A DNA stretch of 64,000 nucleotides from the NCBI GenBank assembly GCA_963738595.1, contig CAVTXF010000002.1, forward strand, positions 215,168-279,167, in the 5' to 3' direction. This DNA comes from an uncultured Alphaproteobacteria bacterium (GTDB lineage Bacteria; Pseudomonadota; Alphaproteobacteria; Rhizobiales; Aestuariivirgaceae). Below the pieces are notes generated by a model that worked only from the letters and a program-made list of their open reading frames with translations, was not told the DNA's origin and made no database searches. The position numbers were made by a program, and so were the translations under genes. Shown here in pieces: positions 5,207-62,018 of the stretch (position 1 is its first letter; each line of letters opens with the position of its first letter).

Positions 5207-5226
5207 CGGTGTTGACCCTGAATTAC

Positions 5227-5238
5227 TTAACATGTTAA
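5227..5238. promoter_or_regulatory. Perfect palindrome TTAACATGTTAA in the 42-bp hpaF/hpaR divergent gap; candidate HpaR operator
   Basis: Palindrome read directly from the sequence; MarR dimers usually bind short AT-rich inverted repeats between divergent genes. Confidence 0.6.
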
Positions 5239-5248
5239 TTGTTTGGCC

Positions 5249-6222: not shown

Positions 6223-6226
6223 CTGG

Positions 6227-17998: not shown

Positions 17999-18014
17999 TG
18001 GGGGCGATCAAGTA

Positions 18015-45225: not shown

Positions 45226-46575
45226 TCAGTTCAAGGCCTGGATCAACGTCGGTGAACCCAGGCGTTCGGCAATTTTTTCGGGCGTGTCGCGGGATATGGT
45301 GCGTGACGTGGTCGAACCACCTGCGTCGACGACCAATTTTGCGATATCAGCCCGGTCGATCCGTACTGCCAGTGTAAGAACCGTGTCGCCATCAAGGTTT
45401 TTCTGATTGATGTCGGCGGCGAGCGGCAGGAGGAGCCTGACGGCTTCCAATCGGCCCCTTGCTGCAGCCAACATGAGCGGCGTGTTCCCGCTCTTGTCGA
45501 GGGCCTCCACCTCGACCGGTTTTTGCAGAAGGGCATTGATGATTTTTGTGTTGCCAGTGTTGGCTGCGACATGAAGCGGCGTGAAGCCTTCATTGTCCGA
45601 GGCTGTGAAAGCTCCGTCACGCTCCAACAGCATTTTGGCCAATGGCTCATTGCCGCTGGCAATGGCACGCCACAGGGGGGTGCGTCCGGCAGCGTCGGGG
45701 AACACTGCGTCCTCTTCCGAAACCAGGTTTCCTGGCACTTCAACTTCAGGGCAATTGCGCGCCAAGACATGGGCTGCCGTTTCGCCTGCATGGTTTGAGC
45801 GTGACTGGCGGAAATGCGATTCCGCCTCCTCAAGGGTTTGCAGATTGCACTGGCGGGCGGCCAGCAGATCGGCGGAGTTGCCGTGAGCCGTTTTCTGGTC
45901 AACGTTGGCGGCAGCGCCCACAAGAATTTTTGCGAGCGCGATGTTTCCGGTTTCAATGGCCCAGAGATAGGCCGACATGCCACCCTTGTCAGACAGGTTG
46001 ACGTTGGCCTTCAAGGCCAGCAATTGTTCCACCAGTTTTGTATTGCCGCTCCGGACCGCAACAATCAGAGGCGTTTGTCCTGCAGCATCGCGCGTATTGA
46101 TATCTGCTGGCGTGGCCGGTGTATCCACTTTTTCAAATGGACGGGCCACACTCAATATCAGCCAGTCCTGCTTTCCGGACGGTTGTGGCTTCAATTTGGC
46201 CAGAGATGCAATGCGCGGATTGCGCAAGGTTGTTGCATCAGGAACCGGAACAGCTTCAGTGGTGACAATGTTTGCAAGGCTGGTGAGCAATTTCCCCGCC
46301 TCGGCATTGCCTCCTGCGGCGGACTTTCGCAACCAGTCGCGGGCCCTTGCATCGTCGCGTCTGGTGCCGAGACCGCTTCGCAACATGACAGCCAGGCGAT
46401 ATTGCGACAGTGGATTTCCTGATCTTGCGGATTTGGTGAGCAGGGCAACGGCCTGCTTGTAGTGGCGGCCGAGGATGAGTTTCTGGTAGGCGTCATCCCT
46501 GGCGAGCGCTTGCGGCGCTGTCGCAAGAGCTACAATCAGACAGGCAGTGCCAAGGAAGGTTCTAAGCGGTGCCAT
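45226..46575 (-). CDS. Exported SEL1-repeat + ankyrin-repeat protein
   Basis: Signal ending PQALA-RDD; SEL1 repeat SQYRLAVMLRSGLGTRRDDARARDWLRKSA; about 8 ankyrin repeats (GQTPLIVAV, GRTPLWRAI, GFTPLHVAA, GNTPLMLAA, GDTVLTLAV). Confidence 0.88.
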   Translation of the reverse strand: MAPLRTFLGTACLIVALATAPQALARDDAYQKLILGRHYKQAVALLTKSARSGNPLSQYRLAVMLRSGLGTRRDDARARDWLRKSAAGGNAEAGKLLTSLANIVTTEAVPVPDATTLRNPRIASLAKLKPQPSGKQDWLILSVARPFEKVDTPATPADINTRDAAGQTPLIVAVRSGNTKLVEQLLALKANVNLSDKGGMSAYLWAIETGNIALAKILVGAAANVDQKTAHGNSADLLAARQCNLQTLEEAESHFRQSRSNHAGETAAHVLARNCPEVEVPGNLVSEEDAVFPDAAGRTPLWRAIASGNEPLAKMLLERDGAFTASDNEGFTPLHVAANTGNTKIINALLQKPVEVEALDKSGNTPLMLAAARGRLEAVRLLLPLAADINQKNLDGDTVLTLAVRIDRADIAKLVVDAGGSTTSRTISRDTPEKIAERLGSPTLIQALN

Positions 46576-47866
46576 ATTTTGTCACCATGTCGATGCCTGC
46601 CGATTTCAGGAATTCGGTGGGGAGAATTCCACCAGCACAGATGATCACGGCGTCATTTTCCATGCGGCCTTCCTTGCCATCGGATGCCAGGACCACGGCG
46701 TCACCGGTGATTTCCTTGACCACTGATTTGAACAAAAGAAGCAGTTTTCCGTCACGCGCCATCGCCGAAGCCTTGTCGCGATTTTTGGAGCGGGCCCTTC
46801 CGAATGCGTCGCCACGATAGGACAGGGTGACCGTGGTGCCGGGCTGTTCGGCTATGCTGGTTGCCGCTTCAAGGGCTGAATCACCACCACCCACAACAAG
46901 CACATGCTTGTTGCGATATTGCTCGGCATCGATGAACTGGTAGACGACTTTCGGCAGGTCCTCTCCTGGAACGCCAAGTTCGCGCGGTGTGCCACGGCGG
47001 CCGATGGCCAGAAGTACGGCGCGACACAGATTTTGTACGCTGCCGGTGTTGACGGAAAATCCGTCGCCGGATTTCGCTATGCTGCTCACCCGCTGGCGGT
47101 ATTTCACATTGAGTGAATGCTTGACTTCAATGTCCTTCCAGAATTCCAAAAGCTTTTCTTTCGAGACTTCCCGGAAATTCACTTTGCCGACAATCGGAAG
47201 AATTGCCGGTGCCGTCATGACGACCTTGCCACGGGGATACTTGAACACTGTGCCACCGAGATCATCCTGCTCGATGACAAGATAGGACAGGCTCTTTTGT
47301 TTTGCAGCAAGGGCTGCGGCAATGCCTGCCGGACCCGCGCCCACGATGATCAGGTCAAAGCGGCCCGGCTGGCCGAAGCCTGTCAGTTTGCTGATTGATT
47401 CAACTGCCTGCCTTCCTTGCTCGACGGCATTGCGGATCAGGCCCATGCCACCCAATTCCCCGGCGATGAAAATCCCCGGAACATTGGATTGAAAGTCCGG
47501 CTTGACGACTGGCAGGTCAATACCGCGCTGCGCGGTTCCAAAGACCAATGTTATCGCATCGGTCGGGCAGGCCGTCTTGCAGGCACCATGGCCAATGCAA
47601 TGGGTCGGCTCGATCAATTCCGCCTTGCCGTTGATGATGCCCAGGATGTCACCCTCAGGACAGGCCAGGGTGCAGGTCGCGCAGCCCAGGCAGGTGGCGG
47701 CATTGATAACAGGATGCAGCGAGGTTGGCTCCGACAGGCCCGCTTCAAAGGCTGCCGTCTTGATCGCAATCGCGCGTTTTTCGGAACGACGGCTGATCGT
47801 CAGATATATGGCCCAGATTGTGGCCATGATGATCAGATAGGGCGAGAAGAGTTTTATGGTTTCCAT
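46562..47866 (-). CDS. Membrane-anchored ferredoxin fused to a thioredoxin-reductase-fold (YpdA/FNR-like) FAD/NAD(P)H oxidoreductase
   Basis: N-terminal TM helix; CLGCATCTLACP and CIGHGACKTACP; PGIFIAGE; GAGPAG; LAIGRRG; GGGDSA; no CxxC. Confidence 0.85.
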   Translation of the reverse strand: METIKLFSPYLIIMATIWAIYLTISRRSEKRAIAIKTAAFEAGLSEPTSLHPVINAATCLGCATCTLACPEGDILGIINGKAELIEPTHCIGHGACKTACPTDAITLVFGTAQRGIDLPVVKPDFQSNVPGIFIAGELGGMGLIRNAVEQGRQAVESISKLTGFGQPGRFDLIIVGAGPAGIAAALAAKQKSLSYLVIEQDDLGGTVFKYPRGKVVMTAPAILPIVGKVNFREVSKEKLLEFWKDIEVKHSLNVKYRQRVSSIAKSGDGFSVNTGSVQNLCRAVLLAIGRRGTPRELGVPGEDLPKVVYQFIDAEQYRNKHVLVVGGGDSALEAATSIAEQPGTTVTLSYRGDAFGRARSKNRDKASAMARDGKLLLLFKSVVKEITGDAVVLASDGKEGRMENDAVIICAGGILPTEFLKSAGIDMVTKYGTA

Positions 47867-47881
47867 GGGGCGCGGTGCTGT

Positions 47882-49084
47882 CTAGTTTTCCGATATTCCA
47901 AGTTCCGCGGCGCTGGCCTTGAGCTGCGCCTGGGTCGGTGCATCATCGGCAAATATCGTTAAGGCTTTGCTGAGTGCGGCACGGGCCTCTTCCTTCTGTT
48001 GCAGCACCATGCGCGAACGCATGAGTCTCACCCAGCCTTCGGCATCGCGGGGCGATGCATCGAGTTTTGCCGCAAGCCTGTCGACCATGGAGCGGATCAT
48101 TTCCTGCTGGTCGGCAGCGGGCATGGACTGGATTGCGGCAACATCGTCTTGCGAAATCTGCGGGGCCGCTGTCTTCATTTCCTGCGGTGGCTCTTTCAGC
48201 TGTTGTGACACGTCGCGGCCCAGCGCCTTGCCGAGATCGGCAATATGTGTGCGCACATCGGTCAGCCAGCCTTCGCCGTCTGGGGCATCGGCGAGAAGCG
48301 CCAGCCACTTGTCGAGAGAAGCTGCCTTGTCGCCCGCTTGCTCCAGTTGAAGTGCGTCATAGAAACGCGAGCGCGGATCCTTTGGTTGGCCTGCCAGCAC
48401 CTTTTTGAAGTTGGCAAGCGCTTCCGGGGTGACGATGCCTTGCGCCGCCTGAACCTGGGCTTCGGCGAGTGCCGACAGATAATCCAGATTGGCCGGGTCC
48501 AATGCAACTGCCTTGGCATAGGCTTCCATGGATTGCTGGTAGCGCTCAGTGTTGAAATAGGACCAGCCCAACATGCGCCAGCCCTCGGCATCGGCGGGAT
48601 TCTGTTTCAGGCGGTCTTCCAGCTTGGTGATCATGGCGTCAACCTGGCCCGTTGACGCGCCCATGCCGGGGGTTGCTGCGGGCTGGGCTATGGGCTGGGA
48701 TGCGACAGTGGGCCTGCTGTCAACAATTGGAACAAGCGTCGGGCTGCCGAGTTTCGCATAGAGAAAGACCGAGGCAAGCGCGACGAAGCCGGTTGTCGAG
48801 ATCAAGGCAAGGCCACGCCAAGCGGGCGAAAGTGGACGAGCCGTCGTGCTTTCTTTCAACGCCGCGATCATGCGGCGCTGGATTTCAATGCGGGCAGAGC
48901 TTGCTGCAGTTGCGTCAATCTGGCCGGACTGCAGGTCGCGATCGAGTTGCTCGAGCTGCAACTCGTAGATTGCCGATGTCCCTGCCTGCGGCGCATTGGC
49001 ATGTTCGAATTTGCGAATGAGCGGAATGCTCACTGCCACACAGGCAGCGCATGCCATGAGGGTCAGGATAATCCAGAGTGTCAT
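47882..49084 (-). CDS. ccmI: Cytochrome c maturation protein CcmI/CycH (TPR)
   Basis: Start reassigned to 49084; TM-IYELQL.QLDRD...ARIEIQRR-TM-Y..LGSP, NPADAEGW.MLG, DAEGWVRL.RS. Confidence 0.9.
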   Translation of the reverse strand: MTLWIILTLMACAACVAVSIPLIRKFEHANAPQAGTSAIYELQLEQLDRDLQSGQIDATAASSARIEIQRRMIAALKESTTARPLSPAWRGLALISTTGFVALASVFLYAKLGSPTLVPIVDSRPTVASQPIAQPAATPGMGASTGQVDAMITKLEDRLKQNPADAEGWRMLGWSYFNTERYQQSMEAYAKAVALDPANLDYLSALAEAQVQAAQGIVTPEALANFKKVLAGQPKDPRSRFYDALQLEQAGDKAASLDKWLALLADAPDGEGWLTDVRTHIADLGKALGRDVSQQLKEPPQEMKTAAPQISQDDVAAIQSMPAADQQEMIRSMVDRLAAKLDASPRDAEGWVRLMRSRMVLQQKEEARAALSKALTIFADDAPTQAQLKASAAELGISEN

Positions 49085-49563
49085 GTGTTCTTGCCCTTGA
49101 TTTCTTCCAGCAGTCTCGTTTCTTCCGGTGACAATGGTTCCGGTACGGCAGGCGAAGATGCCGACCTGCGGCGCATATAGACCAGGAAGACTGACAAAGC
49201 GCTGGCAAAAACCAGAAGCGGACCCAGCCACAGCAGTACGGTGCTTGGTTGCAGTGGCGGTTTCAACAGAACGTAGTTGCCAAACCTGTTGACGATGAAT
49301 TCCTGAACCTGCGCGTCAGTCTCGCCCAATTGCAGGCGCTCGCGCACGATCAGGCGCAGGTCGCGCGCGAGGCCGGCGTTGGAATCATCAATTGACTGGT
49401 TTTGGCAAACAAGGCAGCGCAGGTCGGCACTGATGGCGCGCGCGCGCGCTTCAAGCGCTGGGTCTTGCAGCATTTCCTGCGGCTCTACAGCCATGGCATG
49501 AACTGCCAGGTACATGAAGGAGAAGGCTGTGAAAAACAACCGTGTCATCATTGTCGCCTTCAT
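49081..49563 (-). CDS. ccmH: Cytochrome c maturation protein CcmH/CycL
   Basis: LRCLVCQNQSIDDSNA.LARDLR, RFGNYVLLKPP, LLWLGP; start 49563 (ATGA overlap) or 49551. Confidence 0.93.
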   Translation of the reverse strand: MKATMMTRLFFTAFSFMYLAVHAMAVEPQEMLQDPALEARARAISADLRCLVCQNQSIDDSNAGLARDLRLIVRERLQLGETDAQVQEFIVNRFGNYVLLKPPLQPSTVLLWLGPLLVFASALSVFLVYMRRRSASSPAVPEPLSPEETRLLEEIKGKNT

Positions 49564-51533
49564 GCCGCGGCACCTGCGAGCCTGACGCGATGCGGTGCGC
49601 CAATACGGAAACGCCGGTCGGTGAGCGAGACAAAGCCGCCCAACGCCATGGTGAAACCGCCGATCCACAGGAAGGGGGCGAGTGGGTGATAATAGAGGCG
49701 CACCGTCCACTTGCCCGACTGATCGGCCTCGCCAAGTGCAATGTAGAGATTCGAAATGATGTTGGTCCGGATTGCCGTTTGCGTTACCTGATTTTGCTGC
49801 AACGGGAAAAAGCGACGTTCTGCCACCATGGTGGCGAGCGACTTACCGTCGAGCGTCACATCGAAGGTTCCCTGCTCTGCTTCATAGTTGGGGCCATTGG
49901 CCTGGGTGATGCCCCGCAATGTGACCATGTAACCCGCAATCTCGGCTGTTTCGCCCGGGGCCATGGACAGAATGTTCTCGCGTTGCCAGGTTGATACAAC
50001 AGTAATTGCACCCACAAGGAGGCCAAGCCCGAGATGGGCGAGGACCATGCCAAAGACGCTGCGCGGTGTATTGGCGAGAAGGCTCACGGATGAATCAAGT
50101 GAAGTCTGGGCGAGCTTGATGCGGGTGAACAATGCCCAGACTGCGCCCAAGATGAGCCACAGCGACAGCGCGATACCGCCCGCGGTGAAGATGTAGGACA
50201 GGTGGCCGAATGCAAGGACCGCCAGAAATGCCGCCAGTGCAATCACCAAGGGTATGCGCAGCTTCTGCAACGCAGGCACCACTTCGTCGCGCTTCCATTT
50301 CAGCATCGGCCCAACTGACAATGTGAGCAGCAGCAGAATGAAGATCGGGACGAAGGTGCGATTGTAGAAGGGCGGGCCAACGGAGATCTTGTCGTTGCCC
50401 ATGAGGTCGATCAGCAAGGGATAGAATGTGCCGATGAAGACGGTTGCAGTTGCGGTCACAAGCAGCACATTGTTGAGGGACAATCCGCCTTCGCGGCTGA
50501 CGAGGGAGAATGGCACGCCGGATTTCACCTGCGGGATGCGCAAGGCATAGAGCAGCAATGCGCCGCCCGTTGCCACCGAGAGAATGGCGAGAATGAACAC
50601 GCCGCGTTCAGGGTCCTGGGCAAATGCATGGACACTTGTGAGGACGCCTGAGCGAACGACAAAGGTGCCGATGAGACTCAACGAGAATGTGAGAATGGCG
50701 AGCAGGATGGTCCAGCTCACCAGAGCGTGACGACGCTCGACCACGATGGCCGAGTGCAGCAGGGCCGTGCCTGCGAGCCATGGCATAAGCGACACGTTTT
50801 CAACCGGATCCCAGAACCACCAACCGCCCCAGCCAAGAATATAATAGGCCCAGAAGCTGCCGAGCGTGATGCCCATTGTGAGGAAACACCAGGCAGCCAG
50901 AACCCAGGGCCTGACCCAGCGGGCCCAAGCAGGATCCACTTTTCCCTCGATGAGAGCTGCTACCGCGAAAGAAAAGGTGACGGAAAATCCGACGTAACCG
51001 AGATAGAGACAGGGCGGGTGAATGGCGAGGCCCGGATCCTGCAAAAGCGGATTCATGCCATTGCCTTCAGCCGGTGCGAAGGCAAGGCGCGCAAAGGGAT
51101 TCGAAGTGAAAATGACAAAGGCCAAAAAAGCTGAGGCAATCATACCCTGCACTGCAAGGACACGCGCCTTCAACTGATGCGGAAGTGCTGATCCGAAAAC
51201 CGCGATGAGACATGAGAACAATGTCAACACCAGAACCCACAGCAACATCGAACCTTCATGGTTGGCCCAAACACCGGTAAATTTATAGACAAGTGGTTTG
51301 GTTGTCTGTGAATGAGTCGCAACCAAGGCCAGTGAAAAATCTGAGCTCACGAATCCTGCTGTCAGAAGTGCAAATGCGGCAGCGACGCACACAAAGGCCG
51401 CAATGGCGCCATAATTCCCTAACGCCATCAGGCTTTCATCGCGCCTGTTTGCGCCGATGATTGGTGCTACTGATTGCACCAAGCACACTGAAAAACCTAA
51501 CAAAAGCGCAAACAGTCCAAGCTCTGCAATCAT
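49560..51533 (-). CDS. ccmF: Cytochrome c heme lyase CcmF/CycK
   Basis: WANHEGSMLLW, NPLLQDPGLAIHPP, WWD motif WGGWWFWDPVEN.SLMPW, VRSGVLTSVHAFA, SVGPPFYN; start at ATG 51533. Confidence 0.97.
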   Translation of the reverse strand: MIAELGLFALLLGFSVCLVQSVAPIIGANRRDESLMALGNYGAIAAFVCVAAAFALLTAGFVSSDFSLALVATHSQTTKPLVYKFTGVWANHEGSMLLWVLVLTLFSCLIAVFGSALPHQLKARVLAVQGMIASAFLAFVIFTSNPFARLAFAPAEGNGMNPLLQDPGLAIHPPCLYLGYVGFSVTFSFAVAALIEGKVDPAWARWVRPWVLAAWCFLTMGITLGSFWAYYILGWGGWWFWDPVENVSLMPWLAGTALLHSAIVVERRHALVSWTILLAILTFSLSLIGTFVVRSGVLTSVHAFAQDPERGVFILAILSVATGGALLLYALRIPQVKSGVPFSLVSREGGLSLNNVLLVTATATVFIGTFYPLLIDLMGNDKISVGPPFYNRTFVPIFILLLLTLSVGPMLKWKRDEVVPALQKLRIPLVIALAAFLAVLAFGHLSYIFTAGGIALSLWLILGAVWALFTRIKLAQTSLDSSVSLLANTPRSVFGMVLAHLGLGLLVGAITVVSTWQRENILSMAPGETAEIAGYMVTLRGITQANGPNYEAEQGTFDVTLDGKSLATMVAERRFFPLQQNQVTQTAIRTNIISNLYIALGEADQSGKWTVRLYYHPLAPFLWIGGFTMALGGFVSLTDRRFRIGAPHRVRLAGAAA

Positions 51534-51706
51534 GTTTTTTCCATTCATCCCAGGTTATCAGGCTGCCACAAAATTGACTAAAGTTTTATCGGAGAAAAAG
51601 CAAAAAAACATCGATTTTCTCCACATTTGTTAGCTGATTGTCAGACTAAGGTATGTAAGGACGGCAGCAAGAAGAAAAGTTCCTTTTAACAGCCGGGGGC
51701 ATTCTG

Positions 51707-52687
51707 ATGAGTACTGCGTTATCGCGCAAGTCTGCGCGTGAACTTGTTGCATTTGATCCAGCCGTAAATCCGGCTTCACGACCGCCACAGCGCAGTGCAC
51801 CGCGTCCCGGCTCCAAGCCTGCGCATGTTGCTGCACCGTCTGCGCCGCGCGAAGGTCTTGGAACATATTTCATCCTTATCACATCGTTGCTGGCGATTGC
51901 CTATGGCTATTCGACACGCAATGCCGATGTGTTTGTTCCCTATGAAGGGGCCGGCTACTGGATTGGTGTTGCCGGCGGCAGCGGCATGCTGCTGCAGCTT
52001 GCCTATTCATCGGTCAAGCGGCTGAAATTTTTCCGGCGTCTTGCGGCTTCACGCATGCTCTTCCAGATGCATATGGTGCTCGGTCTCGCAGCACCCATCC
52101 TCATTCTCTATCACGCCAATTTTTCTTGGGGGGCAACGAACAGCAATGTGGCACTTGGCACCATGCTTGCCGTGGTTGCCAGCGGGCTGATTGGCCGCAT
52201 CGTTTACCGGCACATCCACTTTGGTCTGCACGGTGCCAAGGCCAACGCGAACCAGATGTTTGAACATGCCCGACACCTTTTGGGCGACATTGAAGAAGAT
52301 GTCGGCGGTTCGCAGGGTCAAATTGCGGCACGGCTTGCGAATTTCGCCGCGTTGCCGATCTTCCACGAGCGGTCATTGTCGCGGCAATTCGTTTCGGCGC
52401 TGGTCATACCTTTCAAAGTGCGGCTTGCCAGACTAAAGTTCAATTCAATGATTCGGCGAACCGTTGCTGAAAATGCGGTCAGAAACGGTTGGTCTAACGC
52501 AGAGCTGGCACGCCACAGGAAACAAGCACAACTGCATGTCAGGGATTTTCTCCAGTCTTTCAGCGCTGCCTCGCAGCTCGCCTTCTGGGAACGGTTGTTT
52601 TCAGTCTGGCACCTGCTGCATGTGCCCTTGTTCTACCTGCTGCTGGTCAGTGGCGTGGCTCACGTCATCGCAGTCCACTGGTACTGA
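51707..52687 (+). CDS. Inner-membrane bis-heme-b protein of the ferric-reductase-like transmembrane superfamily
   Basis: About 5 hydrophobic helices; two H-x13-H pairs (H-MVLGLAAPILILY-H and H-VPLFYLLLVSGVA-H); long helical soluble insert; first gene of the cytochrome operon. Confidence 0.72.
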   Translation: MSTALSRKSARELVAFDPAVNPASRPPQRSAPRPGSKPAHVAAPSAPREGLGTYFILITSLLAIAYGYSTRNADVFVPYEGAGYWIGVAGGSGMLLQLAYSSVKRLKFFRRLAASRMLFQMHMVLGLAAPILILYHANFSWGATNSNVALGTMLAVVASGLIGRIVYRHIHFGLHGAKANANQMFEHARHLLGDIEEDVGGSQGQIAARLANFAALPIFHERSLSRQFVSALVIPFKVRLARLKFNSMIRRTVAENAVRNGWSNAELARHRKQAQLHVRDFLQSFSAASQLAFWERLFSVWHLLHVPLFYLLLVSGVAHVIAVHWY

Positions 52688-52696
52688 GGATGTTCC

Positions 52697-54070
52697 GTGA
52701 TCAGGAGGCTGGCCCAATTCCAAATTGGCCTGGCCTTCCTGGTGGGTCTGGTGTTTCTTACAGGTCCCCTGTGGGCGCAAAACACAGTCGAAAACCTGGT
52801 TCAGCCTGACCTGCTGGCGACAGCACACAAGAAACTCGAAGAAGACTGCAGTACCTGCCACATGGCCTTCAAGAAGGCTGCGCAAAGCTCACTCTGTGCC
52901 GATTGCCACAAGCCGGTGAAACAAGACATTGCCAAGGGCGAGGGCTTCCACGGCAAGAATCCCCTGGTGAAAAAGTCCGAGTGTGCCAACTGTCACGCTG
53001 AACACAAGGGTCGCGACTTCAAACAGGACCGGTTCACCAGCATTACCTTCAACCATACTGAAACGGATTACCCGCTTGATGGCAAGCATGCCCAGGTGGA
53101 TTGCAATGGTTGCCATTTGCCGGGCAAGAAGTTCAGCGCAGCACCACATGCCTGTTTCGACTGTCACGAGAAGGACCAGCCACATCGCGGCAATCTGGGA
53201 AACAAGTGCGAGTCCTGCCACAACACCAAAGACTGGAAAAAGACCGCGATCTTTGACCACAGCAAGACAGACTTTCCGCTGAATGGCGCGCATGCCAAGG
53301 CGACATGCTTTGGTTGCCATGTCGGAGAAGTCTACAAGGGTGTCTCCAAAACATGTTTTGGCTGCCACGCGATGCAAGATGTGCATGATGCGCGGTTTGG
53401 CGAAAAATGTGAGAGCTGCCACACTGAAAAAGACTGGAAGCACAAGGCTTTTGATCATGGCAAGCTGACGCGCTTTGCCCTGACAGGGGCCCATGCCAAG
53501 GCCGCATGTGCCGACTGTCATGGCAAGAACCTCACATCAAAACTGCCGATGGGCTGCTTTGATTGCCACAAGAAGCAGGATGTCCACCTGGGCCAGCTTG
53601 GACAAAATTGCGAGAGCTGCCACAAGACTTCTGCCTGGCGGCAGGATGTGACATTCGACCATGCGCTCACGGCGTTTCCGCTGTCTGGTTTGCACGTCGC
53701 AGTGGCCTGCGAAAGTTGCCATGCGAGCCCAGCCTATAAAGATGCCAAGACAGATTGCTTCTCGTGCCACAAGAAGGACGACGTGCATGAAGGACGGCTC
53801 ACGGCAAAGTGTGAAAGTTGTCATTCGGCCTCCGGCTGGACAAAGGTTGCCTTCAACCACGATACCGGAACGAAATTCCCGCTGACGGGGGCGCACAAAA
53901 AGCTTGGTTGCCATGGCTGCCACAAAGAGAAAAACGTGGTTTCGGCCAGCCTTCCGGTTGCGTGTTATGCCTGCCACAAGGCCCAGGACATACATCGCGG
54001 GGCGTTTGGCCAGAACTGCGCCGAATGTCATTCAACGGTCAGTTTCAAAGGCGCAATTATCCGTAAATGA
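52697..54070 (+). CDS. Periplasmic multiheme cytochrome c, 18 CxxCH
   Basis: Hand count of 18 CxxCH; Sec signal ending PLWA-Q; GAGGA RBS, GTG start; five ~68-aa triheme repeats. Confidence 0.93.
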   Translation: MIRRLAQFQIGLAFLVGLVFLTGPLWAQNTVENLVQPDLLATAHKKLEEDCSTCHMAFKKAAQSSLCADCHKPVKQDIAKGEGFHGKNPLVKKSECANCHAEHKGRDFKQDRFTSITFNHTETDYPLDGKHAQVDCNGCHLPGKKFSAAPHACFDCHEKDQPHRGNLGNKCESCHNTKDWKKTAIFDHSKTDFPLNGAHAKATCFGCHVGEVYKGVSKTCFGCHAMQDVHDARFGEKCESCHTEKDWKHKAFDHGKLTRFALTGAHAKAACADCHGKNLTSKLPMGCFDCHKKQDVHLGQLGQNCESCHKTSAWRQDVTFDHALTAFPLSGLHVAVACESCHASPAYKDAKTDCFSCHKKDDVHEGRLTAKCESCHSASGWTKVAFNHDTGTKFPLTGAHKKLGCHGCHKEKNVVSASLPVACYACHKAQDIHRGAFGQNCAECHSTVSFKGAIIRK

Positions 54071-54211
54071 GTCATTAATCCGAATCATTTCACTAGACTT
54101 TACGAATGAATCCTGACTTTAGTTAACGCGCCAAAAGCATGGGGAAAACGGCACTCCGGCTGAAACTGACAAAGCGCTGACAGGGTTCGCGCCGCGATCG
54201 GAGAGGAAGGA

Positions 54212-54268
54212 ATGCACAGAGGAAAAAGTCCAGTGGTGCCGTTGTCGGAAGAGTCGCTGCTTTCGTGA
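54212..54268 (+). other. Possible 18-codon upstream ORF (MHRGKSPVVPLSEESLLS) whose stop overlaps the GTG of the 17-heme gene
   Basis: Purine-rich GGAGAGGAAGG just before ATG 54212; TGA 54266-54268 overlaps GTG 54265-54267. Confidence 0.3.
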
Positions 54269-55632
54269 ATGGTGCGCTGTCATATTCCACAATCGCCAAT
54301 GCCGCCTTGCGTGGCATTGTGGCGTTGTTTGTGCTTCTCGTGCTGGCTTGCGGGTCTGCTTCCGCAGAAACAGTGATCGACAAGAATTTCGACCACTCCA
54401 GGACCAACTTTCCGCTGACCGGCAAGCATATCGATGTACGGTGCGAAACATGCCATGCGGGAGCCAAGTTCAAAGGTACTCCTACTGCCTGCTTTGCCTG
54501 CCATGACGGCAAGACAGCGTCGGGCAAGAGCCGCAATCATCCACCGACCACGAACCAGTGCCTGGACTGCCATGACACGGCACGCTGGAAAAATGTAAAG
54601 GTCGATCACAGCAAGATCTCGACCAACTGCTTCAGTTGCCATGACGGAAAGATTTCAACCGGCAAAAGCAAGACACATATTCGCAGCAGCGCAACATGCG
54701 AAGACTGCCACCAGGTGAGCACGTGGAGTGTCGCAAAATTTGACCATGCGATGACGACACTTCCCTGCGCCAGCTGCCACAATGGCGTGCAGGCCATCGG
54801 CAAGGGTCCGAAACATGTTCCTTCATCCAACAATTGCCTGTCCTGCCACACGACAGCGAAGTGGGAACTCAGCGGCTTTGATCATGCCGGCATTACCGGA
54901 TCGTGCTTTGGATGCCATAACGGGCGGGTCGCGACAGGCAAAACGCGCAATCATGTGAAGACCACCAATACCTGCGAAGACTGCCATTCGGTGCGGGTGT
55001 GGATTCCGACGACACGCTTTGACCATGCGTCAGCTCTCGGCAGCTGTGTGAGCTGCCACAGCGGCAAGGTGAAATCCTCTGAAGGGACGATCCAGGGAAA
55101 GTCGCGCAGCCACTTCAAGACAACCGATGCCTGTGAAACCTGTCATAGTGTGACAACCTGGACCACCTCGCGCTTTGACCATGCGGAAGCGCTGGGGACG
55201 TGTTTTTCGTGCCACGACAACCGGCATCCGCCAGCAGGTGGCAAGGGTCGCCGGCATTTTGCAACGTCGAATGCCTGCGAGGCCTGCCATGTTGTTTCAA
55301 CGTGGATCACTTCACGTTTCGATCACGCCGAGGCCAGCGGAACATGCTACTCGTGCCACGACAACAACCATCCGCCAGCCGGTGGCAAGGGCCGCAGGCA
55401 CTTTGCCACGTCGAATGTGTGCGAGGCCTGCCATGTCAATTCGACCTGGACGACCTCGCGCTTTGATCACGCGGAGTCGACCGGGACCTGCCTGTCGTGC
55501 CATGACAACCGGCATCCGCCAGCCACCGGAAAAGGGCGCAGGCACGTTGACACGGTGAAACCCTGCGATATATGCCACCTCAGCACTGCTGACTGGACGA
55601 TCCTCGATCCCAACTGGCCGCAGCTGCAATGA
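54265..55632 (+). CDS. Exported multiheme cytochrome c, 17 CxxCH, possibly a lipoprotein
   Basis: Hand count of 17 CxxCH; hydrophobic signal with VLAC (lipobox-like) and ASA-E (SPase I-like); one triheme plus seven diheme modules. Confidence 0.92.
   Translation: MNGALSYSTIANAALRGIVALFVLLVLACGSASAETVIDKNFDHSRTNFPLTGKHIDVRCETCHAGAKFKGTPTACFACHDGKTASGKSRNHPPTTNQCLDCHDTARWKNVKVDHSKISTNCFSCHDGKISTGKSKTHIRSSATCEDCHQVSTWSVAKFDHAMTTLPCASCHNGVQAIGKGPKHVPSSNNCLSCHTTAKWELSGFDHAGITGSCFGCHNGRVATGKTRNHVKTTNTCEDCHSVRVWIPTTRFDHASALGSCVSCHSGKVKSSEGTIQGKSRSHFKTTDACETCHSVTTWTTSRFDHAEALGTCFSCHDNRHPPAGGKGRRHFATSNACEACHVVSTWITSRFDHAEASGTCYSCHDNNHPPAGGKGRRHFATSNVCEACHVNSTWTTSRFDHAESTGTCLSCHDNRHPPATGKGRRHVDTVKPCDICHLSTADWTILDPNWPQLQ
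55170..55600 (+). repeat. Three tandem 144-nt (48-aa) diheme repeats within the 17-heme gene
   Basis: GCCA(C/T)GACAA recurs at 55211, 55355 and 55499; unit FDHAE..GTC.SCHDN.HPPA.GKGRRHF.TS..CEACH...W.TSR. Confidence 0.88.
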
Positions 55633-57833
55633 AGTATCGCGCATTCAAACAGTTGCACGGATTCAGCGCCAGCGTGATCGCATGCACGGTCGCCGCTTCG
55701 AGCCAGACCAGTATCGCGCAATCCGTGCCCCAGAAACTGATGACGTCCCTGCAAGTGACCGAAGATGGAAATTGCGAGCAAATTCACCTTCGGCTGAATG
55801 AAGCGGCGAACTTTGCCGGAGCGACACAAAGCGGAACGTCGGCCATCGTCGAAATTCCCATCGAGATCCTCGCGGGTGATACTCCGACACTGCCGACGGC
55901 AGAAATTCTGCCCGTCCCGGCCGACAATGCGGCTGGTGTGAAGACAATCGGATTTTTGCGAAATGCCGGGCAAACGCCCGCGATTGCCATCCGGTTTAAC
56001 GCAGCCGTCAACTATCGCATCATCATGGACGCTGAAACGCGCCATATCAGGGTTGATGTATCCAAGTCCGGCAGCACAGCGGCCTGCAACACAGGCCAGG
56101 CTGCAGTCGGCAGCATCACGCAACAGCCGCCAGCAGGGCCACTGGCACAAGCCAGTACCGCGATTGCGGCGGGACTCCATGAAGAGGCGCTGAAACTTCT
56201 GGCTCCCCTCATCGTGTCACTTGCCGGAAACGACAAGCAGAAGGCGATGGAACTCAATGGTCTGGCACTTGAGCGTCTCGGTCGGCTTGATGATGCCAAG
56301 TTGCAGTATGAAGCAACTCTCGCGCTTTTTCCCTCCCATGAAAGCAGCGGTCGCATCCGGCAACGCCTCGCTGATGTCGTTGATGCGCTGAACGCAGCAG
56401 CAATTGATGATGCAGCCAAGGGCGACCTGCCGCGCGAACTGCAGGGCGGTGACAAGGCCAACGAGAGTCTTGCCGACAACAGCGGGGCGCTGCGGGGGAC
56501 AATTGCACCCGAGAGCACGTTGCGCAGCATGCGCAAGATCAAGGACCCGGTTGTTGATCCTGACGCCTGGACCTGGACCAAATATGGCCTGGCCGGACAA
56601 GCCTATTACCGTGACGACCAGTTGGGTGATGACCATGAGCTTGTTGAAAGCGAAGTGATCAGCAATGTCAGCGTTGCCTTCAAGGGTGAAAACCAAAAAC
56701 GTGTTGTTTCCCTGCGGGTGGATGCGCTGAACCGGCAAGACCTTGGCATCAATGGCAACGAACGCAAGAACAGTGTCGCGACGTTCTATGCCGACGTTCT
56801 CGACAAGCCTTCCGGTGCTTCGGCGCGCATCGGCCGGCAGGTGCGCAATGATGGTGGCATCTTCGGGCGGTTCGACGGCGTTTCGATGACGTACAAAGCG
56901 AACAAGGCCCTTGACCTGTTGATTGCCGCAGGTTCGCCGGTTTATGACCGTGGCGCGCTTCCCTTTGAAGATGAGATGTATTTTTTCAGCGCCAGCGGGG
57001 TTTATGAATTCCCGGACAGCCCGTGGAGCAGCGAAGTCTACGTGATCGAGCAACGGGCTGGCAGCATCGTTGACCGGCGGGCGATTGGCAGCGAACTGAG
57101 ATATGAAACCGATGACCTTTCGGGCTACACGGGCATTGATTTTGATTTCAACCAGAACAAGGTCAGCAGCGCATTCATTTCAGCAAACTGGCAAGCGAAT
57201 GACCGGCTGGCGCTGAACGCGTCCCTGGACTTCCGGACGCAGCCATTCTTGCTGACATCCAACGCGCTCTCAGGGCAAGAACTGGACAGGCTGCCGAGCC
57301 TGGTCAACCTGCTTGGTGAAAAGCAGGTGCTGATCCTGGCCAAAGACCGGACCGCTGACGCGGTGACGGCAGCACTTGGCATCAGTTATACATTCTCTGA
57401 CACATGGCAAATGTCATTCGATGCCTTGTGGTCAGATGTGTCGGGGATGCCAGCTTCCGGCGGCATTGATGAAATCCCCGAACTTGCCAATGACATTTAT
57501 GTGGGGGCCTATCTCAATGGTACCAGCATTCTCAAGACTGGCGATACATTGGGACTTGGCCTGACCTACAGTCATGGTGAAAGGCGCTCGAAGATCGGCG
57601 CTGACATTTCCTGGCGCTTCCCGGTTGACGAGGCATTGCGCCTTACCACGCGGCTCAGGACCACTGTGACCACGCGCAACGGGGACGCCATCTACAGCAT
57701 CACGCCCAGCATTGGTGCGCGTTACCGGATCGACAAGCACTGGCTGCTGGAGTCGGAGCTTGGAGTGACCCTGCAAAACGGCGAAATGCCTGCAGAACTG
57801 CAGGCATTTGCCGGATACAGATATGAATTCTGA
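55629..57833 (+). CDS. Outer-membrane beta-barrel protein with an N-terminal periplasmic beta domain and TPRs (putative cytochrome-associated porin)
   Basis: ATGA overlap with the 17-heme gene; TPR (KAMELNGLALERLGRLDDAKLQYEATL); ~420-aa C-terminal region of alternating amphipathic strands ending AGYRYEF (terminal-Phe BAM signature). Confidence 0.8.
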   Translation: MKYRAFKQLHGFSASVIACTVAASSQTSIAQSVPQKLMTSLQVTEDGNCEQIHLRLNEAANFAGATQSGTSAIVEIPIEILAGDTPTLPTAEILPVPADNAAGVKTIGFLRNAGQTPAIAIRFNAAVNYRIIMDAETRHIRVDVSKSGSTAACNTGQAAVGSITQQPPAGPLAQASTAIAAGLHEEALKLLAPLIVSLAGNDKQKAMELNGLALERLGRLDDAKLQYEATLALFPSHESSGRIRQRLADVVDALNAAAIDDAAKGDLPRELQGGDKANESLADNSGALRGTIAPESTLRSMRKIKDPVVDPDAWTWTKYGLAGQAYYRDDQLGDDHELVESEVISNVSVAFKGENQKRVVSLRVDALNRQDLGINGNERKNSVATFYADVLDKPSGASARIGRQVRNDGGIFGRFDGVSMTYKANKALDLLIAAGSPVYDRGALPFEDEMYFFSASGVYEFPDSPWSSEVYVIEQRAGSIVDRRAIGSELRYETDDLSGYTGIDFDFNQNKVSSAFISANWQANDRLALNASLDFRTQPFLLTSNALSGQELDRLPSLVNLLGEKQVLILAKDRTADAVTAALGISYTFSDTWQMSFDALWSDVSGMPASGGIDEIPELANDIYVGAYLNGTSILKTGDTLGLGLTYSHGERRSKIGADISWRFPVDEALRLTTRLRTTVTTRNGDAIYSITPSIGARYRIDKHWLLESELGVTLQNGEMPAELQAFAGYRYEF

Positions 57834-57839
57834 ACGCGC

Positions 57840-60800
57840 TTACAGAATGAAATCGACCGCTCTCAATTCGTGGTGACCTGCCAGCTCAATCTGGAAATCA
57901 GCCTTGGCATCGCCGTCAACGTCAACTGCAACAATCGTGTTGTCACCCGAGAAGCGATAGTCAACGTCTCCGGCCCGGCCCGAAAGCCCATGCCAGCCGA
58001 TGAACTTGAAGGCGTTGTTGCCGCTGGCAAAGCTGTTGGCGTCAATCGATGACAGATCAATCCTGTCGGTTCCCTGGTTGAAATCCATGACCACATCGCG
58101 TGATCCTGCAGCGGTGCCGGAGTCCTTCAGGGAATTGAAGTCGAAGACGTCCTTGCCGCCACCGCCCCGCATCGTGTCCACCCCGGTTCCGCCTGCGAGA
58201 CGGTTGGCAGATTCGTTGCCGATCATGATGTTGTCAAGCGAATTGCCGATGCCGTTAATTGCCTTGGTGCCGCTCAGTTGCACGCTTTCGACATTTGCAC
58301 CGAGGCGGAAATTGACCAAGGTCTTGACCAGATCGCGGTCGGCATTGGCGGTTTCGATAACCTGGTCGCTGGACCCGTCGACGATATAGATATCGGTGCC
58401 AGAGCCACCATAGAGCTTGTCAGCGCCGAGGCCACCATTCAGCACGTCATTGCCGCCGCCGCCGCTCAGCATGTCATCACTCTGGCCGCCGAATATCTTG
58501 TTGGCGCCCTTGTTGCCGACGATGGAATTTGCCAGGGCGTTGCCTGTTGCGTCGAGTGCTGCAGATCCCGTGAGCATGAGATTTTCGACATAGGCACCCA
58601 GCGTGTAGCTGATTGAGGATCTTACGGTGTCAGTTCCACCGTTTGCAATCTCAACAGCCCGGTCGCCAGAGTCATCGACGTAGTAAGTATCATTGCCGTC
58701 GCCGCCGTAGAGCATGTCGGCACCAGCGGCACCATTGAGCGAATCATCACCCGCGAGGCCGTAGATCGTGTTGTTGTCGGCATCGCCATTCAGCGTATCG
58801 GAATTGCCCGTGCCATTGTTGGTCGTTCCACCGCCAGTTCCACCACCTGTGCCGCCGCCTGTTCCACCACCTGTTCCTGCGGTCAGATTTGCCAAGGTGA
58901 CAGTGCCGTCGGAGAATTTGAAATTCTCGACGTTGGTGACCGTTTCGACGCCGTCGCGGCCTGTCGTCAGATCGGTAATCCTGACCGTCGTGGCATTGAT
59001 GGAAGTGACCTGATAGTTGGCCTTTGCGCCCGTAAGCACTAGCGTATCGTCACCTGCTCCGCCATCAACCGCATCGTCGCCACCGAGACCGGACAGGGTG
59101 TTGCTGGCGCTGTTGCCCGTGAGGCGGTTGGCAAGGCTATTGCCCGTGCCATTCGTTGCGCTTGTCCCGGTGAGTTCAAGGTTTTCAACGTTTGCGCCGA
59201 GGATATAGGCAATCGCAGACCTGACAGTGTCAGTTCCTTCGTTTGCCTGTTCCGTGATCGTGTTGCCGCCTGTGTTGATGACATAGATATCATCGCCCAG
59301 ACCGCCGACCAATGTGTCGGCACCCACAGCCGCCGTCAGCGTATCATTGCCGGCAAGGCCGTTGATGGTGTTGTTCATTGAATTGCCGGTCAGCGTGTCG
59401 GCACTTGCGGTGCCGTTGATCACGACAGGGTCACCGGGAACAACAACCGGAATGAAGCTTGCGACGGTATAGGAGGTGCCGCCGATTTCGATTTTGGTGA
59501 TGCCCGAGAGCGTGTCGGTGACGCCGCCAATCGTAACGGTGGCGTGGGTGGCGTCCGTTGCGGTGATGGAGTAGTTCCCAACGGCACCCGTGTAGACGGC
59601 TGTATCAGTACCGCCGCCGCCCGTCAGTGTGTTGGTGGCGCTGTTGCCGGTGAGACGGTTGTCCAACGTGTTGCCGGTTCCATTGCTTGCACCCGAACCG
59701 GTGAGTTCAAGGTTTTCGACGTTTGCGCCGAGGCTATAGGTGATTGCCGACCTGACAGTGTCGGTGCCTTCGTTTGCCTGTTCCGTGATGGTGTTGCCGC
59801 CCGCGTTGATGACATAGATATCATCGCCCAGACCGCCGACCAATGTGTCGGCACCCAAAGCTGCCGTCAGTGTATCATTGCCGCCGAGGCCATTGATGGT
59901 GTTGTTCTGCGAATTGCCAGTCAGCGTGTCGGCACCCGCGGTGCCATTGATGACGACGGGATCGGCCGGGACAACAACCGGAATGAAACTTGCGACGGTA
60001 TAGGAGGTGCCGCCGATTTCGATGGTGGTGATGCCCGAGAGCGTGTCGGTGACGCCGCCAATCGTAACGGTTGCGTGGGTGGCGTCCGTTGCGGTGATGG
60101 AATAGTTCCCCACAGCACCCGTGTAGACGGCCGTATCGGTGCCGCCGCCGCCAGTCAACATGTTGCTGGCGCTGTTGCCGGTGATGCGGTTGTTGAGTGC
60201 GTTGCCGGTGCCATTGATCGCGGTGGACCCGGTGAGGACCAGGTTTTCAACATTGGCTGTCAGGGTGTAGCTGACTGCTGCGTTGACAGTGTCGGTGCCT
60301 TCATTGGCATTTTCGACGACGACATGGCCGCCGGCATCATTGATGTTAAAGGTATCATTGCCCTGACCACCATTCATCGTGTCGGTGCCGCCGGAGGCGG
60401 TGATCGTGTCGTTGCCGGCCAGACCATTGATGGTGTTGCTGACGGAGTTGCCCGTCAATGTGTCAGCGCCTGCGGTGCCATCGATTTGGACCGGCGTGAC
60501 TGGAGGTGGAGGAGGAGGTGGTGGCGGTGGTGGAGCAACCGTGACCAGCGTGCCGATGGCAAAGGTGCCGTCAGTGAATTTCACGTTTTCGATGTTGAGC
60601 AACTGGTCAGTGCCGTCAGCACCCGTGTTATCAACGATCTGGTACGTGGTGCCACTTACTAATGTGACAGTGTAATTGGCTTTTGCGCCCTGCATCACAA
60701 CAGTGTCTGTGCCTGCCGCGCCGTCGATCGTGTCATTGCCACCCAAACCAAAAAGCCATGCATCGGATGCAGTCGTACCTGTAATCGTATTTGCAGCGGC

Positions 60801-61064: not shown

Positions 61065-61193
61065 TTCGCTTCTCCAGACGGACAGAATTTCAAATAGGGC
61101 CGACCAATGATGTTTGCCCGGCACGGGTTCAGAAAAATTTTCTCGGTTTTGATTGTTTGAGGCGGCACGCCGCCCCAAACTTACATGTCATTC

Positions 61194-62006: not shown

Positions 62007-62018
62007 TCAACTCTCTCC

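Follow-up and report, generated by a model that had tools for sequence, protein, structure and literature searches.

In the 64,000-nucleotide stretch of DNA analysed here (the window), nine close-packed genes form two divergent operons, and every open reading frame is present at the positions given below. The rightward operon (plus strand) encodes an inner-membrane protein (IMP), an 18-CxxCH cytochrome (MHC1), a 17-CxxCH cytochrome (MHC2) and a TPR/beta-barrel protein. The leftward operon (minus strand) carries ccmF, ccmH and ccmI followed by the genes of an Fe-S flavoprotein and an exported Sel1/ankyrin protein. A sequence-only reading had already described divergent operons with a common gap at 51534-51706. 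The arrangement was confirmed, while the A+T-rich intergenic region had to be corrected to 51549-51706 (158 bp) when the sequence was read; no match to the sigma-70 consensus was found within it. The ATGA overlap claimed for the last two rightward genes was read directly at 55629-55632, the ccmF/ccmH and ccmH/ccmI junctions are ATGA overlaps as well, given the likely true starts, and the flavoprotein gene shares 14 nt with the ankyrin gene. Moreover, apart from the two cytochrome genes no open reading frame of the 3.55 Mb genome has more than two CxxCH motifs, and therefore the arrangement of the cluster is not a chance pattern.

The cytochrome operon starts with the PCC3-type IMP (51707-52687, plus strand; 326 aa), whose gene lies 9 bp upstream of MHC1 and which was recognized by its motifs and an AlphaFold2 model (pLDDT 85.5) with five transmembrane (TM) helices. 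It carries H122-x13-H136 on TM3, S159-G-x-x-G163 on TM4 and H305-x13-H319 on TM5. The two H-x13-H pairs, noticed before from the sequence, and the SGxxG motif are invariant or nearly so in 80 homologs. We infer that the His pairs hold two bis-His hemes b, one near each membrane face. The TM4-TM5 loop of about 130 aa was placed in the cytoplasm because it is basic and helical. The suggested NOX-like route holds as an analogy, but not as kinship of sequence or fold: none of the 80 members matched PF01794 (Ferric_reduct) even at E 10, the model gave no ferric-reductase-type match and nothing below E 0.1 in Foldseek, and alignment with the genome's own FRD protein reached an hhalign probability of 0.14%. 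Homology of the IMP to NOX or ferric reductases was thus not supported, and the likeness is one of motif only. As the IMP shows no detectable kinship with NOX/FRD proteins, it may still contain a quinone site. It matched no Pfam family at the default threshold, and within its family there were weak matches to DUF4405 (29 of 80 members) and Ni_hydr_CYTB (5 of 80). Known members of diheme cytochrome b families of these types react with quinones. The matches therefore favour a quinone-linked PCC3, in which the IMP would be a quinol dehydrogenase or quinone reductase of the diheme type, with the flavoprotein serving regulation, repair or unrelated redox chemistry. We consider this published model (He et al. 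2017, PMC5566968) rather unlikely for the cluster in view of the gene neighbourhoods described below.

The CxxCH counts of the sequence-only reading proved exact. MHC1 (52697-54070, plus strand; Pfam Cytochrome_C7 5.5e-23) is an 18-heme periplasmic cytochrome of c7-like triheme repeats with 25.4 aa per heme. Within the family it is the conserved cytochrome, with 18, 21 or 24 hemes, and orthologs with 36-58% identity are present in nearly all loci. MHC2 (54265-55632, plus strand), with 17 hemes and 26.8 aa per heme, is the variable member, for which roughly 10-91 hemes were counted in other loci. No CxxCK or Cx3-4CH variants were found in either multiheme cytochrome. MHC2 weakly resembles MtrA/DmsE, with 65.7 bits against the DmsE family TIGR03508 (cut-off 192) and a weak match to 6r2q_A (E 0.0015). 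Its lipobox-like VLAC is present only in this lineage, and it may be exposed at the cell surface. Translationally coupled to MHC2 is an outer-membrane protein of 734 aa (55629-57833, plus strand; AlphaFold2 pLDDT 82.7), which consists of a beta-sandwich (38-145), TPR-like helices (171-265), a disordered linker and a barrel (315-733) of about 22 strands in the model, with the usual terminal aromatic residue at its end. In Foldseek the barrel matched generic 16-24-strand outer-membrane barrels (E about 1e-9), and it matched no Pfam family and no MtrB/PioB family. Such generic folds together with a TPR domain would also suit another task, for instance TPR-porin export of the PgaA/BcsC type, with the cytochromes acting as a periplasmic electron store or reductase chain; one locus (L089) indeed has the flavoprotein, IMP and both cytochromes with no adjacent barrel. 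We regard this as the least probable of the readings weighed here, as barrel orthologs follow MHC2 in 44 loci (a count limited mainly by how far the contigs extend), the two genes overlap in our cluster and MHC2 weakly resembles the barrel-threaded MtrA.

PCC3 is a purely computational class introduced by He, Barco, Emerson & Roden in 2017 (PMC5566968), and it had been named rightly in the sequence-only reading. Its IMP is described as measuring about 300 aa and crossing the membrane in five TM helices, with SGxxG on TM4 and a (W)x3-H-x13-H motif on each of TM3 and TM5 (PMC5566968). The IMP analysed here carries this signature, with the Trp only ahead of the TM5 motif (W301). The heme densities of both cytochromes and their Cytochrome_C7 repeats also agree with the class. 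The cluster of B. oligotrophicum S58 (Bradyrhizobium/Agromonas) is listed in the paper that defined PCC3 (PMC5566968). At this locus the IMP is 37% identical to ours (E 8e-49) and MHC1 46%, and we counted 91 CxxCH motifs in the second cytochrome. Accordingly, by motif and homology the rightward cassette is a PCC3 member, with the homology check run against the cluster of B. oligotrophicum S58. PCC3 was patchy within genera in our genomes (3 of 19).

The membrane-anchored Fe-S flavoprotein (46562-47866, minus strand; 434 aa) had been read as a ferredoxin-FAD/NAD(P)H enzyme, and the Pfam/NCBIfam search returned a 4Fe-4S dicluster (Fer4_10 4e-11) and Pyr_redox_3 (5.6e-41). An N-terminal TM helix is followed by basic residues and no Tat motif is present, which is why we place its domains in the cytoplasm. 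The Fe-S motifs are CxxCxxCxxxCP and CxxHxxCxxxCP, the second differing by a His, and they are conserved together with the TM anchor in 52 orthologs. In all of these orthologs H93 of the second motif and R351, which follows the second Rossmann strand, are unchanged. The FAD/NAD(P)H domain is of the YpdA/TrxR type with both GxGxxG-type dinucleotide motifs, but no redox CxxC was found in its NADPH domain. The nearest PDB entry is YpdA/Bdr 7a7b (E 2e-31), and every NCBIfam score fell below its cut-off. Judged from these comparisons, the protein appears to share the TrxR/YpdA fold but to belong to no named enzyme family, and its cytoplasmic side, H93, R351 and the lack of a redox CxxC would fit an electron donor. 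Downstream lies the gene of the exported Sel1/ankyrin protein (45226-46575, minus strand; 449 aa; Ank_2 7.7e-39, Sel1 6e-09), for which Pfam confirmed both repeat types and whose Sec-type signal ends between ALA and RDD.

The sequence-only reading had proposed a co-occurrence test of the flavoprotein and ankyrin genes with the cassette, and the association turned out to be strong and to cross phyla. Of 76 informative loci, which belong to Alpha- and Gammaproteobacteria, Nitrospirota, Nitrospinota and Thermodesulfobacteriota, 68 have a flavoprotein ortholog no farther than 10 kb from the IMP, and Sel1/ankyrin orthologs adjoin the flavoprotein in 62-65 loci. Related genomes are among those counted here and in the samples below, and the counts are not independent. 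The flavoprotein is divergent from the IMP in 58 loci, with smallest gaps of 186 bp, and in L088 one strand encodes the flavoprotein and ankyrin protein as well as the IMP, two cytochromes and barrel. Three of five seemingly flavoprotein-less loci carry the gene elsewhere in the genome. In the order sample all seven flavoprotein-positive genomes were also IMP-positive, on the same contig, and the flavoprotein occurred in none of 392 IMP-negative genomes. The class sample comprised 44 genomes with both proteins, four with the IMP only, 349 with neither and three with the flavoprotein only, one of which is explained by a contig end. Moreover, flavoprotein orthologs are better conserved (52-70% identity) than the IMP (31-47%). 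In an independent variant locus, only 89 bp separate an IMP homolog (hhalign 98.9%) from the upstream gene of a differently built protein with Pyr_redox_3, cNMP-binding and 4Fe-4S domains, and a 4-heme cytochrome lies next to them. Flavoprotein-IMP fusions were not found among the best 150 of 3677 profile matches; the sole long match, P0409, has the look of a frameshift or chimera in the gene call, and a fusion was not confirmed. Since the cassette is almost always accompanied by a membrane-anchored NAD(P)H-type Fe-S flavoprotein, the data suggest that electrons may enter the PCC3 wire from the cytoplasm rather than from the quinone pool. A quinone link would agree with at least one genome (G602) that has the full cassette and in which the standard flavoprotein was not found, but it leaves unexplained why, of all genes in the neighbourhood, that of a cytoplasmic, membrane-anchored Fe-S flavoprotein is conserved best and occurs almost only in IMP-bearing genomes, and why a second flavoprotein architecture is paired with another IMP homolog.

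The leftward operon begins with paralogs of CcmF (49560-51548; TIGR00353 650 bits), a heme lyase with the WWD motif, CcmH (49081-49563; PF03918 1.4e-47) and CcmI (47882-49084; TIGR03142 1.2e-20, PF23914 1.3e-18), which is of the TM plus TPR apocytochrome chaperone type. Pfam and NCBIfam thus confirmed the ccmF-ccmH-ccmI order named before, whereas the starts were corrected to 49563 for ccmH and 49084 for ccmI, whose reading frame stays open to 49231. The claim that the conduit has its own heme lyase was supported, as these genes are a second copy and the housekeeping set lies elsewhere in the genome (contig C13; identities of 52.5% for CcmF, 49% for CcmH and 29% for CcmI). In a phylogenetic tree the cluster CcmF falls in a PCC3-linked clade apart from the housekeeping copies, and three other alphaproteobacterial genomes have CcmF in two copies as well. 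The flavoprotein gene lies among cytochrome-maturation genes here, a position that would suit an assembly role too. Flavoprotein and IMP might accordingly export reducing power that keeps heme iron and CxxCH thiols reduced while CcmFHI, CcmI-like and Sel1/ankyrin proteins mature at least 35 heme sites, and both would then stand outside the working wire. The operon shared with ccmF-H-I in this window, CcmI-like TPR genes in 41 loci, a CcmG-like thioredoxin in L088 and the fact that MHC1 and MHC2 are the only multiheme proteins of the genome speak for such a role. However, most loci have the flavoprotein without ccmF or ccmH (found in 24-26 of 76), the IMP is co-operonic with the cytochromes, and we know of no System I pathway that requires an enzyme of this type. 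We therefore hold an assembly module to be clearly unlikely.

We give about even odds to the cluster being a PCC3-type trans-envelope conduit with the co-encoded flavoprotein as its cytoplasmic entry. Electrons would pass from NAD(P)H via FAD to the two Fe-S clusters, one of them His-ligated, of the membrane-anchored enzyme, and through a putative contact with the IMP to its cytoplasm-side heme b (H122/H305) and periplasm-side heme b (H136/H319), presumably independently of quinones. The 18-heme periplasmic wire would then deliver them to the 17-heme cytochrome in or at the barrel and finally to an external acceptor. The CcmFHI paralogs, and probably the exported Sel1/ankyrin protein, would assemble the two very heme-dense cytochromes. 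Electrons most likely flow outward, because this direction would be downhill and favoured by the membrane potential, in the manner of NOX or MsrQ-Fre. The direction cannot be fixed by sequence, and in an inward conduit Fe(II), Mn(II), minerals or cathodes would supply electrons that pass through barrel and cytochromes to the flavoprotein and on to NAD(P)+ or ferredoxin. However, Fe(II) could reduce NAD(P)+ only in a steeply uphill reaction, and electrons moving inward would work against the membrane potential. The genome looks heterotrophic, as the sequence-only reading had supposed, and aerobic: its RuBisCO-family match is OiaX, an aa3-type oxidase is present, and a Calvin cycle was not found. 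PCC3 occurs in Fe(II) oxidisers and was proposed as an oxidase (PMC5566968). In Sideroxydans ES-1, in contrast, PCC3 clusters were down-regulated on Fe(II) (PMC8788666) and were not Fe-responsive in the proteome (PMC11429942), which argues against a role as dedicated Fe(II) oxidase. Taken together, we consider an inward conduit very unlikely.

In a broader sense, we tentatively propose, with somewhat less confidence than for the cluster itself, that PCC3 systems are not Fe(II) oxidases but quinone-independent, NAD(P)H-driven outward conduits, i.e. a split trans-envelope 'NOX' in which an Fe-S flavoprotein would feed a new family of diheme b gates and these in turn cell-surface heme wires. If true, this would explain why PCC3 is common in aerobic heterotrophs, patchy within genera and unresponsive to Fe(II) in Sideroxydans. 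In aerobic heterotrophs it would serve extracellular reduction (Fe(III) for uptake, Mn(IV), humics) or redox balancing, and a direct connection to NAD(P)H would set the conduit apart in its bioenergetic design, with energy dissipated and not conserved. PCC3 genes, now scored as possible Fe(II)-oxidation markers in environmental genomics, would have to be read differently. The PCC3-linked CcmFHI clade could also serve to examine why cytochromes with canonical CxxCH sites would need a lyase of their own.

With regard to known systems, the maturation genes recall NrfEFG in being a second CcmF-CcmH-CcmI set without CcmA-E that lies beside the cytochromes presumed to be its clients and depends for heme delivery on the housekeeping genes. 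However, NrfEFG acts on a CxxCK site, while the 35 sites of this cluster are all of the canonical CxxCH kind, and the cluster CcmF reaches 635 bits, short of the NrfE-specific cut-off of 927. MtrCAB, MtoAB and PioAB share the logic of a heme wire through an outer-membrane barrel and the adjacent cytochrome and barrel genes. They differ in that the MtrA/DmsE-type signal of MHC2 is far below the family cut-off, the barrel gave no match to the MtrB/PioB family, and the inner-membrane partner is a predicted diheme b protein instead of a CymA/NapC-type quinol dehydrogenase. The proposed entry resembles MsrQ (YedZ)-Fre and NOX/FRE/STEAP proteins, in which electrons from a cytoplasmic NAD(P)H flavoenzyme enter two stacked bis-His hemes b and move outward across the membrane, and the His pairs sit on two helices with 13-residue spacing. 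The IMP, though, has five helices instead of six and a large cytoplasmic helical insert, and the proposed donor is an Fe-S flavoprotein of TrxR/YpdA fold instead of an FNR-type domain. PCC4 and porin-less clusters (He et al. 2017) likewise combine an IMP-type diheme protein, another redox protein and multiheme cytochromes, and the variant locus L101 resembles such clusters; they differ in their IMP subfamilies and partners (Fer4_11 proteins), and PCC4 is without a second large cytochrome. The closest likeness is to PCC3 itself, whose four genes (IMP, periplasmic multiheme cytochrome, second multiheme cytochrome, barrel) appear in the same order, as in Slit_1446-1449 of Sideroxydans lithotrophicus ES-1 (PMC11429942). 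Here the 17 hemes of the second cytochrome lie at the short end of the family range, and the barrel has about 22 strands in the model compared to up to 42 predicted in 2017. PCC3 is elsewhere drawn as quinone-linked, whereas our cluster has a divergent flavoprotein-ankyrin-Ccm operon. The PCC3 literature searched, including He et al. 2017 (PMC5566968) and the Gallionellaceae pangenome paper that also covers PCC3 (PMC9900912), makes no mention of the flavoprotein, the ankyrin protein or the Ccm genes. Thus, the PCC3 core was already described in 2017, and what appears to be new, on genomic evidence, are its flavoprotein, ankyrin and CcmFHI partners.

The nine close-set genes at 45226-57833 form two divergent operons with an A+T-rich gap of 158 bp between them (51549-51706). 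The rightward operon (plus strand) starts with the gene of a 326-aa inner-membrane protein (IMP), followed after 9 bp by that of MHC1, a cytochrome of 457 aa, and after a further 194 bp by that of MHC2, a cytochrome of 455 aa, which shares an ATGA overlap with the gene of a 734-aa outer-membrane barrel protein. Both cytochromes carry a signal peptide, and the motif counts given for them in the sequence-only reading were confirmed exactly, with 18 CxxCH in MHC1 and 17 in MHC2; these are the only ORFs with more than two such motifs in the whole 3.55 Mb genome. The leftward operon (minus strand) comprises ccmF, ccmH and ccmI, which overlap by ATGA at their junctions given the likely starts, then, 15 nt beyond ccmI, the gene of a membrane-anchored Fe-S flavoprotein of 434 aa (46562-47866) and, overlapping it by 14 nt, that of an exported Sel1/ankyrin protein of 449 aa. 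A scan for promoters and terminators returned fewer matches than in shuffled sequence. The nearest named relatives of the cluster genes lie in Aestuariivirga and Rhodobiaceae MAGs. The minus strand directly downstream of the cluster (57840-62924) encodes two RTX calcium-binding repeat proteins, one large and one small, and ApbE; this block also follows the cluster in its closest relative (L086) and is absent from the wider family.

He et al. defined PCC3 as a porin-cytochrome cluster that comprises a porin, one extracellular and one periplasmic multiheme cytochrome plus a conserved protein of the inner membrane, about 300 aa long, whose five helices carry SGxxG (TM4) and H-x13-H (TM3 and TM5) (PMC5566968). 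In our IMP these motifs are H122/H136, H305/H319 and S159-G-x-x-G163, and they are invariant or nearly so in sets of 24 and 80 homologs. Relatives of the protein were found in 493 stretches when one genome per species was scanned, including Bradyrhizobium (Agromonas) oligotrophicum S58, a strain listed by He et al. (PMC5566968). Because of the matching signature and this homology, the rightward four-gene cassette is PCC3, as the sequence-only reading had suggested. By the positive-inside rule the N-terminus of IMP and its 130-aa TM4-TM5 loop are predicted to be cytoplasmic, which would place one histidine pair near each membrane face. Searches for homology to NOX or ferric reductases were negative with Pfam, Foldseek and hhalign, and the Pfam matches of IMP were weak ones to DUF4405 and Ni_hydr_CYTB only.

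Within the family, MHC1 represents the conserved cytochrome (18, 21 or 24 hemes) and MHC2 the highly variable one, with roughly 10 to 91 hemes. Its counterparts have 81 CxxCH in an Aestuariivirga genome (L003, 11859-18932) and 91 in Bradyrhizobium (L034, 12778-20919), against 17 in the window; the window gene contains recent 144-nt repeats, which had been noted before. In the AlphaFold2 model of the barrel protein (pLDDT 82.7), a beta-sandwich and TPR-like helices are joined by a linker to a barrel of about 22 strands. Generic outer-membrane barrels were the sole matches to this fold, and neither Pfam nor Foldseek gave a match to an MtrB-type barrel. By the Pfam/NCBIfam criteria for MtrCAB the cassette is not a member, and MHC2 gave a weak MtrA-type signal (MtrA presumably being chain A of 6r2q). 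A system confined to the periplasm is also possible. Public gene calls miss heme-dense cytochromes at L089 3019-4400 and L087 11039-13536, where short antisense ORFs are called instead; at L089 a frame with 21 CxxCH is open where the public annotation has no cytochrome. Therefore, surveys based on annotation undercount PCC3.

The sequence-only reading had proposed that the conduit could connect to NAD(P)H/ferredoxin of the cytoplasm, in place of or besides the quinone pool, and had suggested co-occurrence of the flavoprotein with the cassette as a test, which it passed. We searched with the nine cluster proteins by tblastn against 80 fetched loci, the best from the one-genome-per-species scan and none of them from Gallionellaceae; 76 were informative. 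A flavoprotein ortholog (at least 50% identity) was present in 68 of these 76, divergent from IMP in 58 of the 68 with a shortest gap of 186 bp, and the ankyrin protein was found in 62 loci. The co-occurrence spans Alpha- and Gammaproteobacteria, Nitrospirota, Nitrospinota and Thermodesulfobacteriota, and the flavoprotein is conserved at 52-70% identity compared with 31-47% for IMP. For three of five loci seemingly lacking the flavoprotein, its gene lies elsewhere in the genome. Among 31 relatives, two had both genes, none the flavoprotein only, one IMP only (on a 3-kb contig of an 85%-complete genome) and 28 neither. Among 401 genomes of the order, seven had both, always on the same contig, none the flavoprotein only, two IMP only and 392 neither; the IMP of these two is probably a second one of PCC4 type. 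Among 400 genomes of a gammaproteobacterial class the numbers were 44, three, four and 349, respectively, and one of the three flavoprotein-only cases is the end of a contig, with the barrel and a cytochrome still present. These tallies take in related genomes, so that counts do not equal independent events, and the pattern holds across many families. L088 has a single co-directional operon for the flavoprotein, the ankyrin protein, IMP, two cytochromes and the barrel, with CcmI-like, CcmG-like and type II secretion genes on its flanks. At 4838-6348 and 17621-20795 this locus has genes for a CcmI-like TPR protein and a CcmG-like thioredoxin (WCGPC), divergent from the cluster, and GspK-N just downstream of it. 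In B. oligotrophicum S58 strain E20 (L034, 8377-9754) either a frameshift or a sequencing error divides the flavoprotein gene into two frames that overlap; it is intact at three other Bradyrhizobium loci (L036, L039, L049). Bradyrhizobium SSBR45G is one of the strains whose cluster is intact.

A genome of the gammaproteobacterial class, G602, has the full cassette, yet the standard flavoprotein was not found in it. On its contig C16 (L101, 2463-5880) a differently built, cytoplasmic protein of 829 aa with Pyr_redox_3, two cNMP-binding and 4Fe-4S domains is encoded 89 bp upstream of a 279-aa IMP homolog with both histidine pairs (hhalign 98.9%), adjoined by a divergent 4-heme c554-like cytochrome. 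There is thus more than one pairing of an IMP-type protein with an NAD(P)H-type Fe-S flavoprotein, and the L101 set may be the same electron gate under cyclic-nucleotide regulation. Among the 150 best IMP profile matches, the ten longest showed no fusion of flavoprotein and IMP; their N-terminal extensions were low-complexity, TPR or SPOR. A separate search limited to long proteins returned P0409 only, which we rejected as wrong-frame-looking sequence parts its IMP and flavoprotein pieces. Flavoprotein-like ORFs of 780-856 aa were checked in the class sample (L100-L102); those at L100 216-2576 and L102 908-3250 belong to a separate flavin, 4-TM and Fe-S family without the histidine pairs, and the third is the cNMP-binding protein of L101. 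In the 780-786-aa proteins of L100 and L102 an N-terminal Pyr_redox_3 flavin domain is followed by four TM helices (Fer4_5), with a 4Fe-4S dicluster at the C-terminus.

The flavoprotein starts with a TM helix that has basic residues after it, and it lacks a Tat motif, which suggests that its cofactor domains face the cytoplasm. It contains the Fe-S motifs CxxCxxCxxxCP and CxxHxxCxxxCP, the histidine of the latter being invariant in 52 orthologs, and two dinucleotide motifs with an invariant Arg after the second Rossmann strand; a redox CxxC is absent. Among solved structures, YpdA/Bdr, thioredoxin reductases and TrxR-type ferredoxin-NADP reductases are its closest relatives, and the Fe-S domain is similar to that of RnfB. 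A 'GD'-type FAD motif (residues 126-142, invariant G-E-L-G-G-M-G) precedes the first GxGxxG, and the alignment with YpdA ends 55 residues before the YpdA C-terminus; judged from motif order and alignment length, this would fit a circular permutation. Histidine-ligated clusters are often entry or exit points of electron-transfer chains, and the predicted one here may have such a place.

The best-supported reading of the cluster, to which we give an even chance, is an outward NAD(P)H-driven route through the flavoprotein. NAD(P)H would give electrons to FAD and two Fe-S clusters, from which they would reach the two hemes b of IMP and then travel along the 18-heme wire of MHC1 to the 17-heme MHC2 at the barrel. 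A quinone link is also possible and was drawn by He et al., who had nevertheless pointed out the likeness of the IMP motifs to ferric-reductase/NOX domains (PMC5566968). Inward flow is possible as well; however, reduction of NAD(P)+ by Fe(II) would be neither downhill nor aided by the membrane potential, and we prefer the outward direction because it would be both. As previously proposed, the source organism looks heterotrophic. Its genome encodes an aa3-type oxidase and lacks a Calvin cycle: the only RuBisCO-family gene (contig C16; L099, 3610-4974) is that of OiaX, 3-oxo-isoapionate-4-phosphate decarboxylase, which scores above cut-off at 772 bits and lies next to OiaK within an apiose-catabolism locus. 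In Sideroxydans lithotrophicus ES-1 the PCC3 clusters were down-regulated on Fe(II) (PMC8788666) and constant in proteomes (PMC11429942).

The cluster also has its own heme lyase, as claimed earlier, since ccmF-ccmH-ccmI is a second set besides the housekeeping ccmI-ccmE-ccmF-ccmH on contig C13. The genome has one ccmC and one ccmE, and heme delivery must depend on the housekeeping genes because the cluster set lacks ccmE. A tree places the PCC3-linked CcmFs from 20 alphaproteobacterial loci in one clade (support 91/81), and second CcmF copies of the source genome and an Aestuariivirga genome group outside it (100/99). Linkage of ccmF was seen in 24 of the 76 informative loci, or in 26 by ORF clustering of all fetched loci, which also linked a CcmI-like TPR gene in 41. 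All 35 heme sites of MHC1 and MHC2 are canonical CxxCH, and therefore the need for a private lyase is not self-evident. It might serve capacity, timing or the portability of a patchily distributed cluster, which is carried by three of the 19 genomes of the genus. A role of the flavoprotein in assembly only is possible too.

Compared with known systems, the four-gene core belongs to the already known, computationally described PCC3 type. The searchable PCC3 papers do not mention its conserved partners (flavoprotein, ankyrin protein and lyase), and therefore the cluster as a whole departs from PCC3 as described there.
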